Shown in pieces: positions 152 to 49,965 of a stretch of DNA of 64,000 nt. Under the pieces are notes generated by a model. The model was given only the letters and a program-made list of their open reading frames with translations, ran no database searches and was not told where the DNA came from. The stretch comes from Escherichia phage vB_EcoM-Sa45lw. The stretch lies in sequence record MK977694.1. One strand, 5' to 3'. Position 1 is the first letter of the stretch. Every line of letters begins with the position of its first letter. The position numbers and the translations under genes are program-made.

Positions 152-2131
152 ATGACTTTATTATCTCCGGGCATTGAGCTCAAAGAAACTACGGTTCAAA
201 GCACCGTGGTTAATAACTCTACTGGTACAGCAGCTTTGGCCGGTAAATTCCAGTGGGGTCCTGCTTTTCAGATTAAACAGGTTACAAATGAAGTAGATTT
301 AGTTAATACTTTTGGTCAACCAACCGCTGAAACTGCTGACTATTTTATGTCTGCGATGAATTTCTTGCAGTACGGAAATGACTTACGAGTAGTTCGTGCT
401 GTTGATAGAGATACCGCTAAAAACTCATCGCCAATTGCTGGTAATATTGAATACACAATTTCTACCCCAGGTAGTAACTATGCAGTTGGAGATAAAATCA
501 CGGTCAAATATGTTTCAGATGATATTGAAACTGAAGGTAAAATTACCGAAGTAGACGCAGATGGAAAAATTAAGAAAATTAATATTCCTACTGCAAAAAT
601 TATTGCTAAAGCTAAAGAAGTTGGCGAATACCCAACATTAGGTTCTAACTGGACTGCAGAAATTTCTTCATCTTCTTCCGGTTTAGCTGCAGTAATAACT
701 CTTGGAAAAATTATTACTGATTCCGGTATTTTATTAGCTGAAATCGAGAGCGCTGAAACTGCTATGACAGCAGTTAATTTTCAGGAAAATCTTGAAAAAT
801 ATGGAATTCCAGGAGTAGTAGCTCTCTATCCAGGCGAATTAGGCGATAAAATTGAAATTGAAATCGTATCTAAAGCTGACTATGCGAAAGGCGCTTCTGC
901 ATTACTGCCAATTTATCCAGGTGGTGGTACTCGTGCATCTACTGCCAAGGCAGTATTTGGATATGGGCCGCAGACTGACTCACAGTACGCTATTATAGTT
1001 CGTCGAAATGATGCTATTGTTCAAAGCGTTGTTCTTTCAACTAAGCGTGGTGAAAAAGATATTTACGATAGTAACATCTATATCGATGACTTTTTCGCAA
1101 AAGGCGGCTCAGAATATATTTTTGCAACTGCACAAAACTGGCCAGAAGGCTTCTCTGGAATTTTAACTCTGTCTGGTGGATTATCATCAAATGCTGAAGT
1201 AACAGCAGGAGATTTGATGGAAGCTTGGGACTTCTTTGCTGACCGTGAATCTGTTGACGTTCAACTGTTTATTGCGGGTTCTTGTGCCGGTGAATCTCTA
1301 GAAACAGCATCTACTGTCCAAAAACACGTCGTTTCAATTGGGGATGCTCGCCAAGATTGCTTAGTATTGTGCTCACCACCGCGTGAAACTGTAGTTGGAA
1401 TTCCTGTAACCCGTGCTGTTGACAACTTAGTCAATTGGAGAACTGCCGCAGGTTCATATACTGATAATAACTTTAATATTAGTTCAACCTACGCAGCAAT
1501 TGATGGTAACTACAAATATCAGTATGACAAATATAATGATGTGAATCGTTGGGTTCCATTAGCAGCTGATATTGCTGGTTTATGCGCAAGAACTGATAAC
1601 GTATCTCAGACTTGGATGTCACCAGCTGGTTATAATCGTGGCCAGATTCTTAACGTTATTAAACTTGCTATTGAAACTCGCCAGGCACAACGTGACCGCT
1701 TATATCAAGAAGCTATCAACCCAGTAACTGGTACAGGTGGTGATGGTTACGTATTGTATGGTGATAAAACAGCTACTTCTGTTCCTTCTCCATTTGATCG
1801 TATTAACGTTCGTCGTCTGTTTAATATGTTGAAAACGAATATCGGACGTAGTTCAAAATATCGTTTGTTCGAATTAAACAACGCGTTTACTCGTTCTTCA
1901 TTCCGTACAGAAACTGCTCAGTACTTGCAAGGAATTAAAGCTCTTGGCGGAATTTATGAATATCGTGTAGTTTGCGATACAACAAATAACACTCCGTCAG
2001 TAATTGATAGAAATGAGTTTGTTGCAACATTCTACATCCAACCGGCTAGAAGCATTAACTACATTACTTTAAACTTCGTAGCAACTGCTACTGGTGCAGA
2101 CTTCGATGAGTTAACTGGTCTTGCAGGTTAA
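152..2131 (+). CDS. 18: Tail sheath protein gp18
   Basis: 659 aa, same length as T4 gp18; N-terminus MTLLSPGIELKETTVQSTVVNN matches recalled T4 gp18. Confidence 0.97.
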   Translation: MTLLSPGIELKETTVQSTVVNNSTGTAALAGKFQWGPAFQIKQVTNEVDLVNTFGQPTAETADYFMSAMNFLQYGNDLRVVRAVDRDTAKNSSPIAGNIEYTISTPGSNYAVGDKITVKYVSDDIETEGKITEVDADGKIKKINIPTAKIIAKAKEVGEYPTLGSNWTAEISSSSSGLAAVITLGKIITDSGILLAEIESAETAMTAVNFQENLEKYGIPGVVALYPGELGDKIEIEIVSKADYAKGASALLPIYPGGGTRASTAKAVFGYGPQTDSQYAIIVRRNDAIVQSVVLSTKRGEKDIYDSNIYIDDFFAKGGSEYIFATAQNWPEGFSGILTLSGGLSSNAEVTAGDLMEAWDFFADRESVDVQLFIAGSCAGESLETASTVQKHVVSIGDARQDCLVLCSPPRETVVGIPVTRAVDNLVNWRTAAGSYTDNNFNISSTYAAIDGNYKYQYDKYNDVNRWVPLAADIAGLCARTDNVSQTWMSPAGYNRGQILNVIKLAIETRQAQRDRLYQEAINPVTGTGGDGYVLYGDKTATSVPSPFDRINVRRLFNMLKTNIGRSSKYRLFELNNAFTRSSFRTETAQYLQGIKALGGIYEYRVVCDTTNNTPSVIDRNEFVATFYIQPARSINYITLNFVATATGADFDELTGLAG

Positions 2132-23430: not shown

Positions 23431-23484
23431 TCCTCATGTTATGTCAGTAAGACTACTATAACACAACACGAGGGACTTGTAAAC
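23431..23484 (-). promoter_or_regulatory. Early promoter plus SD; copy 1 of an exact 54-bp direct repeat
   Basis: Minus strand reads GTTTAC, 18-bp spacer, TGT-TATAGT extended -10, then GAGGA. Identical 54 bp occur at 39225-39278. Confidence 0.6.
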
Positions 23485-25541
23485 TACATTTTGAACTTTT
23501 TAGACATTCCGTTAATGTTAACCAAAGAAGCTAAGATTTGAGAAACTTCGTTTTCCTCTTCTTTTGATTCTTCTACAAGGAATTGATTAAATCCAGCCAT
23601 TGGACGAACTTCACCAGTTTCCATTAGATGGTCGCCATCATATACTGATTCTTCTAATTGTTCAGAAGGAGGAACGATTGTACCTTCGATTAGATACTTG
23701 TTATAAGCAGTTTCTTTCATAAAGTAAGTACTTACTTTATTAATCTTCAGTAAAATTCCACGTGGTAGAATAACTTCAGCTTCTGATGGAAATCCTGATA
23801 AATGACCCGGAACGATAACTTTAACTCGTTCAGCTCCTTTAATTACCATACCCACGCTAGTTTCAGCATCTTCATTAGCATATGTAGAATGACTACCCAT
23901 ATGCATCAAATCTTCTGCATCAACGGAACCTTCTCCTTCACCAGAAAATACTGCTCCGGAATCATCTAAGGCCATATAATTTTTACCATACTCACCAAAG
24001 ATATTTGGTTTAAGTGATGTAGATACGAAGTTCTTGAAATAGAACATTTTATTTTCAATGTTATGACGCAAAGTTTTAAAAGTAACTTCTTGTCCACGGT
24101 AAAGTGTAGTTCCTGGAGGAAGAACTGAACCTTTAGCAAACGCAGAATCCATAGTCTCGATGTGCTTAATAGCGCGCTCCATGTATTCTTCACGTGTAGA
24201 ATCAGGTTTACCTAAAAGGAATGAGTTCATTTCAACATACGAATCTGCACAATAATCTTCAATTACATCAGATTCAGCCTGAGTCAATCCTTTTGGAGTT
24301 ACTTCAGTGCTTGCATATTCATACGCCTGAGCAGCGGATTCATCAATTAATTTATAAATGCCATTCATGACAAATTGAATAATAGCTGTCTTTTCATCTG
24401 GCGTAGCTTTAGAACCTTTAACTAAATCATTGACAATTTTCTTAATAACATCAAAGCTATTAGAAATATTAATGTCAGCAAGATCGCTTAAAATTTTATC
24501 AGTTTTATAATCAAAGAATTCTTTATTCTTTAAATATTCTTGAGAACCTTGATATGTTATATCGCTCTGCAGCTTGATAGATGGATCACGTAAACGTGCA
24601 TGGGCTAATGCAATATGATTTCGGAAGCTTTCTAGTTCATAATCACTAGATTTAAAACGAGAAGCACTCCTCATACCACCGATAGCTCCTTTGCCGAAGT
24701 TTGAACCAATCTGAATAACGCCAGAGTTCATTGGTCCTTCTGCTTTATATACCGGAACTTTAGATTCAAACTCTTGATATTTCTTAGCAGCAAAGCTATC
24801 ACCCTGAAGTGAAGCATCAACAGTAGAATATTGAGCTTGTGCTGCTAATCGACGACTAATTTTAGTTTTCTGAATAACAGCTTGATCCGTACGCTTATCA
24901 TTTTCTAAAGCAATAGAAGCAGCAACTGCGACAGCTTTAGGAACAGCATTACCTGTTTTAACGTCTACATAAACATCACCGACTTTCGATTCAACTTTTG
25001 TGAATAACTCAGTTGAAATAGGAGGTACACCTGGAATGTCTTCTAAATTGGCATTTTTACGGTAAACCATAATATATGCATATTTCTTATCATAGTCCCA
25101 GATTTCCTTTAAAAGAACATATCGACCTGCTCCTTTAGTACGTACTAAACGGTCAGCAATAACTTGCATTTGACGAGCAGCGCCATTTGTTTTACTTTTT
25201 AGTACGCGGAATAGGCATGCATCAATTTTATACTGTTTCATTGTTTGAAGAGCAGTATCAAAAACCGCATTAATGACACCAATTGGATTTCCACCCAAGT
25301 TTTTAAGCTTAACTAACGATAATTTCTCATTAACACCTATCATTACGATATGCATCATTTTGTCGCCTGGCTTAACGTTTTTATTCGTATCACCGCCAGA
25401 GGTGTATGTACAAAATCGAAATCCAGGAAGAACGCTTTCTTCACCGGCTTGAATAGCAAAAATTTGAGGTATTTTATGCTTAGGATTTAAGTTAACAACC
25501 GGCGCCGAAGCGCCGTCAAATAATTCTGTAATAAGTTCCAT
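23484..25541 (-). CDS. Alt-family ADP-ribosyltransferase paralog, intact
   Basis: 685 aa; N-terminus MELITELFD... nearly identical to Alt over about 65 aa; C-terminal domain carries R (LYRGQ), STS (FVSTSL) and EAEVILPRG motifs. Confidence 0.85.
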   Translation of the reverse strand: MELITELFDGASAPVVNLNPKHKIPQIFAIQAGEESVLPGFRFCTYTSGGDTNKNVKPGDKMMHIVMIGVNEKLSLVKLKNLGGNPIGVINAVFDTALQTMKQYKIDACLFRVLKSKTNGAARQMQVIADRLVRTKGAGRYVLLKEIWDYDKKYAYIMVYRKNANLEDIPGVPPISTELFTKVESKVGDVYVDVKTGNAVPKAVAVAASIALENDKRTDQAVIQKTKISRRLAAQAQYSTVDASLQGDSFAAKKYQEFESKVPVYKAEGPMNSGVIQIGSNFGKGAIGGMRSASRFKSSDYELESFRNHIALAHARLRDPSIKLQSDITYQGSQEYLKNKEFFDYKTDKILSDLADINISNSFDVIKKIVNDLVKGSKATPDEKTAIIQFVMNGIYKLIDESAAQAYEYASTEVTPKGLTQAESDVIEDYCADSYVEMNSFLLGKPDSTREEYMERAIKHIETMDSAFAKGSVLPPGTTLYRGQEVTFKTLRHNIENKMFYFKNFVSTSLKPNIFGEYGKNYMALDDSGAVFSGEGEGSVDAEDLMHMGSHSTYANEDAETSVGMVIKGAERVKVIVPGHLSGFPSEAEVILPRGILLKINKVSTYFMKETAYNKYLIEGTIVPPSEQLEESVYDGDHLMETGEVRPMAGFNQFLVEESKEEENEVSQILASLVNINGMSKKFKM

Positions 25542-25544
25542 GAT

Positions 25545-27638
25545 TTATCCTTGAACGAACTTGTAAGGCATGTTTGTAATATCTATGCAAGACGCAATAA
25601 TTCCAAGAGATGATTCTACTTTCTGTTTAATATTTGATGAAACAAATGATGCAAAGTCAACTCTGTCTTCTATTTCAATATCACCTGTCATTGCAACCAA
25701 TTCACCAGTTTCCATTAAATGGTCTCCATCATAGATTACCGATTCGGTGAGCTCTTCCGTGGTCATAACTTCAGCTTGAATGAGTTTTGTATTATTAGAT
25801 GTTGTTCCGTCATTATTAGAAGCATCAGTTATTTTATTAACCTTGACCATCAATCCGCGTGGTAGAATAACTTCAGCTTCTGTTGCTATTCCGAGACTTC
25901 CTGGATATACAACATTAACTTTATGAGCTCCATCAATTGCCCATCCTATTTGAACTTTAACATATTCAGGATTTTCTTTATACGCTCTTATTTCGTTTGG
26001 ATTAATAGTTATTCCTTCTTCATTTTTATCAACTGTTAATTCGTTACGAGCTTCTGGTTCTAAAAGACCAATACCAGCATGTGTGATTCCAAAACGTCCA
26101 AAAATGATAGGAGTTAAAGAAGTAGATACAAAATTTCTGAAGTAGAACACTTTATTTTTAACTAACGCTTCATATATAGGAGCAGTCATACTTTGAGCAC
26201 GATAAACTGTAATGCCTTCTGGTATACGGTCACCATTTTCAAAAGCTGAATCTAAGTTATTTATAGCAGATTCAATTTCTTTTTCACTCATTACATCGTA
26301 TCGTTCTGGATTGTAACGACCTAAAAGAAGATTATTGATGTCAGTATATCCTGAACCGCAATATTCTCTAATGCCACGCTTTTGTGATGGAGTATATTTA
26401 GAACCATCGCGGGCAATAGTAATATCAATCATTGGACCAGCACCAATTCCAGAAAAACTGTAAATCATTCGTTTGAGGAATTTAGTTTTTGCTGCGTTCC
26501 AGGAATTTTTAGTTATTTCTTCCCAGACTTCATCTGGTTGTCCTTTACGATTTTTATTATGATTAGCAAGCCATTTATCTTTATAATCTTCAAAGAATTG
26601 ATTTACAGCTGCTGCGTATTTCTCTAAACATTTTATTGAAGTAGTTGGTTCATTTTTAATTGCATTAAAAATTACTTCTTTAATTTTTTCTGAAACTTCA
26701 CCGACTTGACTCATTGGAAAGAATTTATAATCATAGTGAAGTTCATCTGCCGTTCCTTCAGCAATAATTTTTGCTGCCTTTGTTTTAGAAGCTAATGAAT
26801 TAATTCCAATTTTCATTTCTTCTGCTTCGGGAATTAAAGGTGCAGTAGCTGGTTTATTAAAATTAGCTGCTGTAGATTCATACTTCTGGAATAATTCACT
26901 TTCAAATCTAGAAGATTCCAATGACTGACTTTGTGCAATTGCTCTACGGGAAATTTTAACTTTAACGATTACGGCTTGGTCAGAACGTTTATCATTTTCT
27001 TGTGCAATAGATGCAGCAATTGCCTCATTTTTGGTTACTTGAGCTCCAGTATCTTTATTGATATAAACATCACCGACCTTCGATTCAACTTTAGTAAAAA
27101 GCTCGGTGCTAATTTCTGGAACTCCTGGAATGTCTTCTAGTGATACATTTTTACGATGTATAAGAATATATGCATACTTTTTATCGTAATCCCAGAGTTC
27201 CTTAAGAAGGACGTATCTGCCACCTGAACGACTGCGGATGAGTCTATCAGCAATAAGTTGAATTTGTCGAGCTTGACCGGCGGTTTTAGACTTAAGAATA
27301 CGAAGCATGCAGGCATCAATTTTATATTGACGCATTGTTTGCATTGCAACAGTAAAAACTGAATTGATATAATTAATCGGGCTTGGACCAAGACCTTTTA
27401 ATTTAGCAATTGAACCTTTAGCAGTTAATGTAAAAGGAACAATGTGCATCATTTTATCGCCCATCTTTAAATCACGATTAGTATCACCTCCAGATGTATA
27501 GGTACATAAACGAAAGCCTGGTTGTTCAATTGCATCATCAACATGAACTGAAAAAATTTGTGGTATTTTCTTCTTTGGATTTAAGTTTGTAATCGGAAGA
27601 GTAGTATCTTCGTCAAATAATTCTGTAATAAGTTCCAT
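25545..27638 (-). CDS. alt: Alt, virion-packaged ADP-ribosyltransferase
   Basis: 697 aa; N-terminus MELITELFDEDTTLPITNL matches recalled T4 Alt; R (VYRAQ), STS and EAEVILPRG motifs. Confidence 0.93.
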   Translation of the reverse strand: MELITELFDEDTTLPITNLNPKKKIPQIFSVHVDDAIEQPGFRLCTYTSGGDTNRDLKMGDKMMHIVPFTLTAKGSIAKLKGLGPSPINYINSVFTVAMQTMRQYKIDACMLRILKSKTAGQARQIQLIADRLIRSRSGGRYVLLKELWDYDKKYAYILIHRKNVSLEDIPGVPEISTELFTKVESKVGDVYINKDTGAQVTKNEAIAASIAQENDKRSDQAVIVKVKISRRAIAQSQSLESSRFESELFQKYESTAANFNKPATAPLIPEAEEMKIGINSLASKTKAAKIIAEGTADELHYDYKFFPMSQVGEVSEKIKEVIFNAIKNEPTTSIKCLEKYAAAVNQFFEDYKDKWLANHNKNRKGQPDEVWEEITKNSWNAAKTKFLKRMIYSFSGIGAGPMIDITIARDGSKYTPSQKRGIREYCGSGYTDINNLLLGRYNPERYDVMSEKEIESAINNLDSAFENGDRIPEGITVYRAQSMTAPIYEALVKNKVFYFRNFVSTSLTPIIFGRFGITHAGIGLLEPEARNELTVDKNEEGITINPNEIRAYKENPEYVKVQIGWAIDGAHKVNVVYPGSLGIATEAEVILPRGLMVKVNKITDASNNDGTTSNNTKLIQAEVMTTEELTESVIYDGDHLMETGELVAMTGDIEIEDRVDFASFVSSNIKQKVESSLGIIASCIDITNMPYKFVQG

Positions 27639-39224: not shown

Positions 39225-39278
39225 TCCTCATGTTATGTCAGTAAGACTACTATAACACAACACGAGGGACTTGTAAAC
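39225..39278 (-). promoter_or_regulatory. Early promoter plus SD; copy 2 of the exact 54-bp direct repeat
   Basis: Identical to 23431-23484; SD GAGGA followed by the alc-like ATG. Confidence 0.6.
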
Positions 39279-46218: not shown

Positions 46219-47177
<959 letters not shown>

Positions 47178-47230: not shown

Positions 47231-47590
47231 TTATATTATCTCCCATCGAAAAGGGTCAGGAGCATATCCGATAGAATTAATCATTTTAACTAAAGTTACC
47301 ATTCCTTTGTTAACTGCTTGTGCGATTTCATCAAAAACTTCATCGCTATCATCATAAAGGTCATTAAAAAGTTCTAACACGTTCTTCTGAACTTTTAATT
47401 TACAGCCAACAAATTCGCCTACAGTAAATTCGTTTCCGCCAACTCCAGCGTAAAACGTAATTACACCAGTTAATGGTCTTTCACTAGAACATAGGTCGTG
47501 TGATAAATTAATATAAGCCGTCCCGGGTGCAGTTTTAAGTTGGCAACGAATACTTACTCGAGCAATTCCAGCTACACGAATGTCAGACAT
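47231..47590 (-). CDS. Hypothetical protein (frd.2 position)
   Basis: 119-aa ORF. Confidence 0.65.
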   Translation of the reverse strand: MSDIRVAGIARVSIRCQLKTAPGTAYINLSHDLCSSERPLTGVITFYAGVGGNEFTVGEFVGCKLKVQKNVLELFNDLYDDSDEVFDEIAQAVNKGMVTLVKMINSIGYAPDPFRWEII

Positions 47591-47600
47591 ATTATTTTCC

Positions 47601-47843
47601 TCAAATAGACTTTTTCACAATTTTCCAATCAGCTTTAAACTGCTCGACGTCAGAATGGTAAATCCAAAATCCTGCGCTTTCTCCATCCTCATAAAGAGGG
47701 CATCCATCACATTCATCTTCCCATCCCATATCGCGTAAAAGGTGTTCAGCTTTTTCAACAAGTTCAGAATCTTTACCGATGATATTAAAATACCATTTAC
47801 CTCTAACTTCTGAATCTTTGATACTCTGACGTTGTAATCTCAT
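47601..47843 (-). CDS. Hypothetical protein (frd.3 position)
   Basis: 80-aa ORF with strong SD AAGGAGAA. Confidence 0.65.
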   Translation of the reverse strand: MRLQRQSIKDSEVRGKWYFNIIGKDSELVEKAEHLLRDMGWEDECDGCPLYEDGESAGFWIYHSDVEQFKADWKIVKKSI

Positions 47844-47853
47844 TTTATTCTCC

Positions 47854-47922
47854 TTAGCAAGCTTTAATCAAAAGATATAAACAGACCAACATAACTGCTG
47901 CCATAATATAAGGTGCGAACAT
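47854..47922 (-). CDS. Candidate 22-aa hydrophobic mini-protein; not in the supplied ORF track
   Basis: Hand translation MFAPYIMAAVMLVCLYLLIKAC; SD GGAG upstream; early promoter -10 lies 31 bp upstream of its ATG. Confidence 0.4.
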   Translation of the reverse strand: MFAPYIMAAVMLVCLYLLIKAC

Positions 47923-47952
47923 TTTCTTTTCTCCATTAGTTTTGATAGGGTA

Positions 47953-47982
47953 ATAGTATCACACTACTACCCCGTTGTAAAC
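47953..47982 (-). promoter_or_regulatory. Sigma70-type early promoter upstream of the mini-ORF and frd.3
   Basis: Minus strand GTTTAC, 18-bp spacer ending GTGTGA, TACTAT. Confidence 0.5.
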
Positions 47983-47984
47983 AA

Positions 47985-48245
47985 TTATTTTTGAATTTTA
48001 TCGAGCCACTTACCAAGCTTAATCATTTCTTTAGTAGCCTTTTCCATACTTCTGAACTTAACCAATAGAGGATAGGTATCGACACCCATAACTAAACTGG
48101 TTACAAGACTGTGTTCACCCACAAGCCATAATGAATACGTTTGAATATCGAGCCCGTAATTTCTGTCTTTATGGACCCGTACACCCATCACTTCAAATTT
48201 CTCACTAGCTTTTTCTACCGCATCCAGGAAATCATCTTTAGTCAT
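47985..48245 (-). CDS. Hypothetical protein
   Basis: ORF track starts at 48287; ATG at 48245, 1 nt after the upstream stop, gives 86 aa. Confidence 0.55.
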   Translation of the reverse strand: MTKDDFLDAVEKASEKFEVMGVRVHKDRNYGLDIQTYSLWLVGEHSLVTSLVMGVDTYPLLVKFRSMEKATKEMIKLGKWLDKIQK

Positions 48246-48246
48246 A

Positions 48247-48648
48247 TTAGGCCTTAAAAGTTTTTCGCAAAAGTTCAATGATTTCATCTACATTGTTTTC
48301 ATCAACAATGCAGTGAATTTTTGTCACGTCAGAAACCTTGTCTTCGATTTCATCTTCTTCAGAAGTCGGTTCTTTATATTCGCGGAAACAATAAAACTCT
48401 TCTTCACGAAGTTCAAAATAATCATCATCCATACCATCATCATTATAGATTTCACCATTAGCACAAATGATTTCGGTTACATAATCAAAGCCATCTAAAC
48501 TTAATATTGATTTAACTTCAAACCAACCACCATTTTCTTGAATGATGCCGACCATACTAGCATTTAATGAACTAATATCAATGAAAGATTTAATATGACG
48601 TGGATTTAACTCGTATTTTTTTTCCAACTTCCACTTTGATTTCCTCAT
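48247..48648 (-). CDS. Hypothetical acidic protein
   Basis: 133-aa ORF, very acidic C-terminal half. Confidence 0.6.
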   Translation of the reverse strand: MRKSKWKLEKKYELNPRHIKSFIDISSLNASMVGIIQENGGWFEVKSILSLDGFDYVTEIICANGEIYNDDGMDDDYFELREEEFYCFREYKEPTSEEDEIEDKVSDVTKIHCIVDENNVDEIIELLRKTFKA

Positions 48649-48680
48649 TTTAACGGGGCTATCAAATAGCCCCTTGATAA

Positions 48681-48911
48681 TTATTGTTCAATCAGTCCCA
48701 TGTAAAATTCTGCGTCTTCAGAATCCATGCCATCGCAATATTCATTAGCCATAAAGCGGGTAAGGTCTTCAAGAGGACCTTCAATGACAATAGAAAAATT
48801 GCAATAATTGGGATCATCATGAATACTTGTGATACTAAGTTCAGGATAACGATTACGAATAATCTCTTCAATATATTCAAAATCAACGATGTCAATATCA
48901 ACTTTAGCCAT
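48681..48911 (-). CDS. Hypothetical acidic protein
   Basis: ORF track starts at 48932; ATG at 48911 with SD AAGAGGAAA gives 76 aa beginning MAKVDIDIV. Confidence 0.6.
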
Positions 48912-48954
48912 ATTATTTTCCTCTTTAATCATCAGCAGTATTGCCGATAGTTGT

Positions 48955-48984
48955 ATAGTACCATAAAGCCTTATGTTTGTAAAC
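48955..48984 (-). promoter_or_regulatory. Candidate sigma70-type early promoter
   Basis: Minus strand GTTTAC, 18-bp spacer, TACTAT; no extended TG; 43 bp upstream of the 76-aa ORF start. Confidence 0.4.
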
Positions 48985-49004
48985 CGTTTTGTGAAAAAAT
49001 TTTT

Positions 49005-49034
49005 GAAATAAAAAAGGGGACCTCTAGGGTCCCC
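49005..49034 (-). terminator. Intrinsic terminator downstream of gene 32
   Basis: Minus strand GGGGACC-CTAGA-GGTCCCC followed by TTTTTTATTT. Confidence 0.55.
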
Positions 49035-49056
49035 AATTAATTAGTAATATAATCTA

Positions 49057-49965
49057 TTAAAGGTCATTCAAAAGGTCATCCAGGTCCGTGTCATCAGCAC
49101 TAGATGAACTGCCAGAGCTTGAGCTCATAAAATCATCTTCAGTTTTTGTATTGAAGTCATCAACATTGAATGCATCCAAATCATCAGCAACTTTATCAGC
49201 TTTCTTAGCAGCAGTTGCAGCGGCACCGCCCATCACAGCAGTTCCCATAACTTGACCGAATTTAGTATTCAGTTCTTCAAACGATTTGAATTTATCTTTA
49301 GAAGTCATTTCAGAAAGGTCAACCATTTGTTCGAACAGTTCTTTCTGGAAAGATTCATCGTCAATGTTTGGAATCGCAGATTGATTCAGGAATTTAGATT
49401 CGTCGTAGTTACTAAAACCAGAAACTTGTTTAACTTTCAGTACAAAGTTAGCACCTTCCCACGGACAAGTTACATCAACCGGAGTTTCACCCATTTCAAC
49501 ATCAACTGCAATCATTGCATTGATTTTATCCCAGATTTTCTTACCGAAACGATATTTAAATACTTTACCTTCGTTTTCTGGAGCAGCTGGATCTTTTACA
49601 ACAAGAATGTTAGCCCAGTAAGAAGTTTTACGTTTAACAAGACCGTACTCTTTATTGTCAGTGTTGTACAAATCATTTTTACTGATGTACTGACATACTG
49701 GGCAAGAATCGTAATCACCGTGGGTAGATGAACAGTTTTCAATATACCATTTACCATTTTTCTTGAAACCGTGATTTACAAGAATTGCGAATGGTGCTTG
49801 TTCATCATTTTTAGACGGAAGAAAACGAATTACTGCTTGACCGTTACCCGCATTGTCGAGTTTCAGTTTCCACTCGCCTTTATCTTCAGAAGAAAAACCA
49901 CCTTTATTTCCAGCCAGTTTAGCCATTTGCGCAGCGAGTTCAGCAGTAGATTTACGTTTAAACAT
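49057..49965 (-). CDS. 32: Single-stranded DNA-binding protein gp32
   Basis: 302 aa (T4 301); N-terminus [17 protein letters not shown]; Ser-rich acidic C-terminus [22 protein letters not shown]. Confidence 0.97.

Follow-up and report, generated by a model that had tools for sequence, protein, structure and literature searches.

What, if anything, is encoded in the 141-nucleotide (nt) gap between a 100-amino-acid (aa) open reading frame (ORF; stop at 47985) and the frd.1 gene (ATG at 47843) of Escherichia phage vB_EcoM-Sa45lw? The gap lies within a 64,000-nt stretch of the phage genome (record MK977694.1), which is called the window below and is a Tequatrovirus segment. It is occupied by a minus-strand ORF of 22 codons (47854..47922), the mini-ORF, encoding MFAPYIMAAVMLVCLYLLIKAC and ending with TAA. 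An earlier reading of the sequence alone (the sequence-only reading) had described it as a promoter-driven hydrophobic mini-ORF missing from the ORF track, and both the frame and its GGAG Shine-Dalgarno (SD) box were recovered here as described. Purifying selection on the peptide sequence was shown directly by comparison with related phages. In our judgement, the mini-ORF is probably a genuine protein-coding small early gene, whose predicted product is most likely a single-pass inner-membrane peptide acting by helix-helix association.

Purifying selection on a 22-codon reading frame

Over the 241 nt around the mini-ORF, the window matches phage ECO4 with 100% and AR1 and RB27 with 99.6% identity. 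The T4 reference genome (AF158101.6) encodes exactly this peptide at 146018..146083 on the minus strand, where the gap between frd.2 and frd.1 carries no annotation, and the same peptide occurs in T6, PST, the RB phages and many others. A blastn search with the 75-nt ORF query produced 200 records covering it, and 131 of the 200 copies are at least 99% identical in nucleotides. With tblastn, an uninterrupted full-length match to all 22 aa was likewise obtained in 200 records, distributed over the organisms in the same way, and thus a broken frame was not seen in any copy. Nucleotide conservation accompanied by loss of the frame, which the sequence-only reading had named as the pattern that would speak against a gene, was not seen in any of these 200 records. 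ATG, 22 codons and TAA are present in all 21 fetched copies, including the most divergent ones, from Tequatrovirus, Mosigvirus (ESh15) and Dhakavirus (MN04, UP19, B-01).

The frame is conserved, and not the nucleotides alone. The 18 variable sites among 10 haplotypes are distributed as 11, 5 and 2 over codon positions 3, 1 and 2, respectively (binomial P=0.014). Eleven of the 20 variant alleles are synonymous, compared to an expectation of 4.85 +/- 1.58 under random placement of the same mutation types (P=0.00024). In frame +2 just 4 of the same alleles are synonymous, and in frame +1 they create 6 stops. An overlapping 22-aa ORF in frame +1 (47868..47936, minus strand, MEKRKCSHLILWQQLCWSVYIF), starting at the ATG inside TAATGGAG, is not a gene, because of these stops from 6 of 20 natural variants and because its Dhakavirus version is unrelated.

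In the proposed frame, the pairwise ratio of non-synonymous to synonymous differences per site (pN/pS) is 0-0.37; all four substitutions between T4 and IME537 are synonymous. For the same phage pairs, the pS of the mini-ORF is similar to that of frd.1 (0.30 vs 0.25 and 0.30 vs 0.18), and its pN is close to zero. Therefore nucleotides drift freely where the protein is unaffected. The replacements are limited to A/T/I/V, M/I, L/V, V/I and F/L, all of them hydrophobic, and 16 of the 22 residues (M1, A3-M7, V10, C14-C22) are invariant over the three genera. The leaders vary by indels of 2-8 nt just before the ATG, but each of them retains an SD box 7-8 nt upstream, as GGAG in T4 and Dhakavirus and as GAGG/AGGA in ESh15; the ORF itself is free of indels.

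The odds of a chance ORF were estimated from 5000 dinucleotide-preserving shuffles of the gap. An ATG ORF of at least 22 codons was present in 13% of the shuffles, an SD-preceded one in 1.3%, and an SD-preceded one with a grand average of hydropathy (GRAVY) of at least 1.5 in 0.02%. In the window, the mini-ORF is the only ATG ORF of 14-45 codons with a core SD box and GRAVY above 1.2 outside the ORFs of at least 70 aa.

Apart from a single call in GenBank, the mini-ORF is uncharacterised, and the T4 reference does not include it. The lone annotation seen in about 90 distinct records with listed or inspected annotation is ACG-C40_0237a (AFH20202.1), a 'hypothetical protein' of vB_EcoM_ACG-C40 (JN986846.1). 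It is a 69-nt coding sequence in the same gap between frd.2 and frd.1, and its peptide MLAPYIMAAVMLVCLYLLIKAC differs in one residue; the ACG-C40 genome paper makes no mention of the mini-ORF. The gap is left empty in T4, T6, ECO4, AR1, RB27 and the remaining inspected records, so the absence from annotation noted in the sequence-only reading holds for most records, but not for ACG-C40.

Early promoter, leader and neighbouring genes

The features of the locus are listed in Table 1. T4 early promoters have a UP/-35/TGn/-10 architecture (PMC2988021). The sequence upstream of the mini-ORF contains all elements of a T4 early unit, namely the A/T-rich upstream stretch, a GTTTAC -35 box, TGn, a -10 box at a distance of 17 nt, where 17 +/- 1 nt is expected, and an SD box and ATG at a suitable distance. 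The homologous site is called a T4 early promoter in the annotation of SA21RB. Transcription would start at about position 47946. The ATG lies 31 nt from the end of the -10 box, as the sequence-only reading had it, and from the upstream stop up to this ATG the frame offers no alternative start. The same reading had likened this distance to that of other early genes, and rightly so: at six other extended -10 early-type promoters on the same strand of the window, the first ATG with an SD box is at 29, 31, 28, 38, 32 and 44 nt.

Table 1. Features of the mini-ORF locus in the window.
Feature	Position	Strand	Description
Mini-ORF	47854..47922	-	22 codons and TAA (stop 47856..47854), product MFAPYIMAAVMLVCLYLLIKAC; predicted single-pass membrane peptide
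-35 element of the early promoter	47976..47982	-	GTTTACA; T4 early consensus GTTTAC
A/T-rich UP-like stretch	about 47983..48004	-	directly upstream of the -35 element
Extended -10	47953..47961	-	TG at 47961-47960, n (a), TACTAT at 47958..47953
SD box of the mini-ORF	47931..47934	-	GGAG, 8 nt 5' of the ATG at 47922
TAAGGAG	47850..47856	-	mini-ORF stop fused to the SD box of the next gene; right cassette end at both loci
frd.1	47601..47843	-	downstream gene, 80 aa, DUF5417, phrog_1254; outside the cassette
Inverted repeat/hairpin GGGGTAGTAGTG-TGA-TACTATTACCCT	47947..47973	-	12 bp; overlaps the promoter spacer and the -10 box; -15.2 kcal/mol

The order on the minus strand is gene 32 (49965..49057), three small ORFs, the 141-nt gap, the 80-aa gene and, farther on, frd. 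The 80-aa gene had been labelled frd.3 in the sequence-only reading; by T4 and AR1 nomenclature, it is frd.1. Gene names in the records are inconsistent, and AR1 gives the names frd.3 and frd.2 to other ORFs than T4 does, which may be the origin of this label. The junction into the gene reads TAAGGAG-aataaa-ATG, and frd.1 is probably the second cistron of the early transcript of the mini-ORF. Some mechanically defined ORFs in this neighbourhood exceed the coding sequences annotated in ECO4 and AR1 (46797..47177, minus strand, 126 aa from TTG vs 81 aa; 47985..48287, minus strand, 100 aa vs 86 aa), and thus the true starts of these two small genes are uncertain.

Equivalents of the promoter hairpin with different stem sequences (AGGGTA/TACCCT, AGGCTAT/ATAGCCT, GATAGG/CCTATC) and energies of -15 to -16 kcal/mol were found in six lineages (the window and compared loci L004, L006, L007, L008, L032), and they are present also at sites without the mini-ORF. 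In the SA21RB record, a promoter plus a rho-independent terminator are annotated at this spot. The hairpin would form only in read-through RNA coming from upstream, and together with the promoter it looks like a composite promoter/terminator of the PeSL type (early promoter plus stem-loop).

Candidate regulatory structures in the RNA itself were also considered. In the search for RNA-level ALTERNATIVES, neither strand of 47500..48300 matched an Rfam family with E up to 1. The transcript predicted to run from the leader into frd.1 is less stably folded than 200 of 200 shuffled sequences (z=+2.26); this speaks against a conserved RNA structure and is in line with an open 5' end that is translated efficiently. 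Thus a structured RNA was rejected. A promoter-like match, TTGATT-18-TAAAAT, is present in the 3' half of the mini-ORF (47842..47871, minus strand; 652..681 in compared locus L005), and it is annotated as a predicted promoter in phage Lutter. As a promoter of frd.1 it is probably spurious, because its start site would fall inside frd.1.

A present/absent cassette at two loci

Base-level alignment of filled and empty sites delimits a variable unit of about 84 nt, composed of the SD box, the 22 codons and TAAGGAG. At the frd.1 locus, 200 records are filled, and about 291 empty ones were found by a search with the empty-site junction. Among loci picked for frd.1 alone, some close relatives cleanly lack the mini-ORF, and a promoter of the same type continues into TATCAAC-TAAGGAGAATAAAATG(frd.1). 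A second locus was found in Dhakavirus MN04, UP19 and B-01, where a motB-like gene and cef flank the mini-ORF (77-82% protein identity). The promoter and leader are the same in about 70 further members of the Dhakavirus group, JS98, JS10 and IME08 among them, with about 90 nt missing. In Tequatrovirus and Mosigvirus the gene behind the cassette is frd.1, and in Dhakavirus it is cef. The upstream neighbour varies independently, being frd.2 in T4 and the 100-aa ORF both in the window and in the empty-site loci L008 and L009. Since the mini-ORF is found before frd.1 and before cef, and since its upstream neighbour varies independently, it is not tied to one downstream gene. Neither the second locus nor the mobile, present/absent nature of the mini-ORF featured in the sequence-only reading.

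The early promoter and the start of the leader are common to filled and empty sites, and the boundaries of the cassette are near-repeats (CTAAtGGAGAAaAgAAAATG vs CTAAGGAGAAtAAAATG). The near-repeats suggest that the accessory unit moves by recombination, in the conserved promoter and leader at its upstream end and in the SD region at its downstream end, so that the cassette would be shuffled by recombination in conserved regulatory sequences. One can go further and suppose that the unit is a self-contained mobile 'micro-gene', which inserts itself as the first cistron behind existing early promoters via microhomologies in the promoter/leader and the SD box, and whose peptide helps the phage, under certain conditions, during the first minutes of infection. 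We consider this extended version possible, but rather doubtful.

A similar mode of mobility, recombination between conserved regulatory sequences, was proposed for the PeSL and ORFan cassettes of T4-type phages (Arbiol et al. 2010, PMC2839356; Comeau et al. 2014, PMC4122927). As in those cassettes, an early sigma-70-type promoter and a stable stem-loop lie by a variable ORF which some very close relatives have and others lack, and the region is hyperplastic. However, the mini-ORF unit inserts behind the promoter, at the point where the leader gives way to the next SD box, and shares the promoter with the resident gene. There is one promoter/hairpin, on the upstream side, and the downstream boundary is an SD-like near-repeat rather than a second flanking PeSL. 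Further, the hairpin overlaps the -10 box instead of preceding the promoter, the polyG/polyC stem of RB49 and phi1 is absent, and the cargo is only 22 codons long.

Several other observations concern the variability of the window. The stretch between gene 32 and frd.1 (47985..49056, minus strand) is hyperplastic: it contains frd.3 and frd.2 in T4 and ORFs of 83, 133 and 100 aa in the window, ECO4 and AR1, and further ORF combinations are found in Ge15 and ESh15 (compared loci L003, L004, L007). The two copies of a perfect 54-nt direct repeat, at 23431..23484 and 39225..39278, are separated by 15.8 kb. Each consists, on the minus strand, of an early-type promoter, a leader and an SD box (GTTTACAAGTCCCTCGTGTTGTGTTATAGTAGTCTTACTGACATAACATGAGGA), and they precede different genes (96 aa and 168 aa). 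Such identical promoter-leader modules could be recombination substrates for cassette shuffling. Finally, 23593..25892 and 24969..27217 contain several direct repeats of 50-155 nt with 77-82% identity, spaced at a regular distance of about 2.09 kb (families D1, D2, D4), which suggests two diverged tandem paralogous genes.

The predicted membrane peptide and alternative explanations

The peptide of the window has a GRAVY of 2.05, and the range over the variants is 1.9-2.3. On the Hessa scale, the insertion energy sums to a negative value for every variant. In each of them residues 2-19 are uncharged and K20 is the sole charged residue. The hydrophobicity on which the sequence-only reading had based a membrane peptide is thus conserved, whereas its suggestion of membrane activity was drawn from hydropathy alone. 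Residues A3, M7, V10, C14, L17 and A21 are invariant, have 4-3-4-3-4 spacing and form one helical face (R=0.90), and the five variable core positions are off it. This stripe weakly suggests a helix-packing interface. A lipoprotein signal peptide was rejected, as C14 is preceded by M-L-V (I-V-I in Dhakavirus), with no match to the lipobox [LVI][ASTVI][GAS]C, and there is no basic N-terminus.

Based on these features, the following course of events can be proposed. The host sigma-70 RNA polymerase would transcribe the mini-ORF right after infection, from a promoter that is strong by its UP, -35, TGn and -10 elements. As the first cistron behind a short unstructured leader, with GGAG 8 nt before the ATG, the mini-ORF would be translated efficiently. 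The peptide would enter the inner membrane as one alpha-helix, approximately residues 2-19, with K20 probably in the cytoplasm. Insertion is expected to be post-translational, because a chain of 22 aa is too short to leave the ribosome before termination. In the membrane, the peptide most likely self-associates or binds a host inner-membrane protein via helix-helix contact, for which the support is modest. As a possible secondary effect, location of TAA on the next SD box may permit coupled re-initiation on the downstream gene. A role in host takeover, exclusion or counter-defence would fit the early timing and the accessory distribution, but this is speculation.

A class of small (at most 50 aa) single-pass inner-membrane proteins of E. 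coli was reportedly described by Hemm et al. in 2008. AcrZ, KdpF, MgrB and MgtS belong to this class. By kind, the predicted product of the mini-ORF belongs with these proteins, and it appears to be carried on a small shufflable cassette. The common features are the tiny size, one hydrophobic helix with a flanking basic residue, an own SD box, omission by gene callers, recognition by comparative genomics together with evidence from the ribosome-binding site (RBS), and likely helix-helix binding in the membrane. Unlike the E. coli class (referred to in bioRxiv 10.1101/511675), the mini-ORF is phage-encoded, early and accessory, its 22 aa are at the low end of the size range, and its peptide has no similarity to any Pfam or NCBIfam family.

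The peptide also resembles type I toxins in being very short, very hydrophobic and predicted to insert into the inner membrane. Toxins of this type include Ibs (19 aa), ShoB (26 aa), TisB (29 aa) and Hok/Ldr. However, toxin mRNAs are tightly repressed, whereas the mini-ORF has a strong promoter and an open unstructured RBS. When an antisense-RNA antitoxin was looked for, neither strand of 47500..48300 matched an Rfam family, and the opposite strand showed no convincing promoter/terminator pair. A type I toxin locus was rejected on both grounds. The smallest T4 polypeptide known to have been characterised is Stp (26 aa), which is hydrophilic, cytoplasmic and early, and acts on a host protein. 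Both Stp and the predicted mini-ORF product are very short early peptides encoded by T4, but the latter is shorter and hydrophobic, and there is no sequence resemblance. Set against the size of Stp, the product, if translated, would be the smallest known T4 protein.

The fusion of the TAA with the next SD box at both loci, the constant position of the mini-ORF as the first cistron directly behind an early promoter, and the lack of structure in the leader could also mean that it is the act of translation that matters. The mini-ORF would then be a translated cis-regulatory leader, feeding ribosomes to the overlapping SD box, shielding the transcript from Rho and RNases, or tuning the downstream gene. 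However, a pure spacer ORF does not need the purifying selection on the amino acid sequence, seen in the excess of synonymous changes, the conservative replacements and the 16 invariant residues. Moreover, frd.1 and cef use the same promoters and SD boxes without the mini-ORF in about 291 and about 70 records, respectively. Dedicated leader and arrest peptides differ from the mini-ORF in the same respect: it precedes two unrelated genes, so it is not dedicated to one, and both genes lack it in most relatives. No attenuator-type alternative RNA structures were predicted. We regard a cis-regulatory leader as unlikely. An untranslated chance frame inside a conserved non-coding element, such as recombination DNA, an embedded promoter or an RNA element, is quite improbable. 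Much of the conservation does reflect recent common ancestry, given the large share of nearly identical copies, the promoter-like match in the 3' half of the ORF is annotated in one record, and some ATG ORF of this length is not rare in the shuffled gap. On the other hand, the codon-position and synonymous bias is specific to the frame (P=0.0002), the other frames gaining stops or mostly non-synonymous changes. The SD box and its spacing are kept across leaders that differ by indels, and SD-preceded hydrophobic ORFs are exceedingly rare in the shuffles. The RNA variant of this explanation meets with the absence of Rfam matches and the unusually unstructured RNA, and the promoter variant with a start site inside frd.1.

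The high variability of the region between gene 32 and the frd genes, where T4, ECO4/AR1, Ge15 and ESh15 have different ORFs, allows one more explanation, namely that the mini-ORF is what is left of a larger, decaying membrane-protein gene, for instance an N-terminal signal or transmembrane segment spared by a deletion. ORF shuffling and deletion at promoter cassettes are indeed known in T4-type genomes (PMC2839356). However, tblastn with E up to 10 finds the 22-aa ORF alone, in one place per record, and never within a longer protein. The start, stop and length do not differ between the three genera or between the two loci, the selection is purifying and not relaxed, and the mini-ORF has its own SD box. 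We give this explanation very little credence.

Several points weigh against the preferred reading of the mini-ORF as a gene for a small membrane peptide. The statistics are based on 10 related haplotypes from three genera with about 20 substitution events. The transmembrane assignment was made with simple hydropathy scales only, and the helical-face argument relies on five variable positions. The mini-ORF is absent from about 60% of close relatives, and thus it is dispensable. Sequence searches in Pfam, PHROGs, NCBIfam and PDB produced no homolog, with one insignificant PHROG match (E=0.5), and exact look-up of three peptide variants in a collection of 15 billion proteins gave none. Scans of viral contigs found T4-like copies only. 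Scans of metagenomes and genomes with the degenerate core PYIM-x6-CLYLL gave two T4-identical copies and four chance matches without an ORF, that is, no distant relative, bacterial homolog or copy outside T-even phages; therefore no function can be transferred from a relative. The searchable literature contains nothing on the peptide string or on transcription, translation or membrane location at this locus.

T4 is among the most thoroughly annotated genomes, and if the mini-ORF is a gene, model phages still hide micro-genes below the thresholds of gene callers. The predicted expression, in the earliest phase and from a very strong promoter, falls into the window of host takeover, exclusion and counter-defence factors. 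If the doubtful suggestion of a mobile micro-gene is true, the unit would be the smallest moron-like cargo so far in T-even phages, and the advantage could be, for example, neutralising a membrane-associated host defence, excluding a superinfecting phage or depolarising the membrane. In that case, a functional early gene would have been missing from the T4 reference genome for decades. The distribution of filled and empty sites over about 500 sequenced relatives, together with the second locus, provides natural isogenic-like comparisons, and the cassette may serve as a concrete example of tiny ORFs spreading via promoter and RBS homology.

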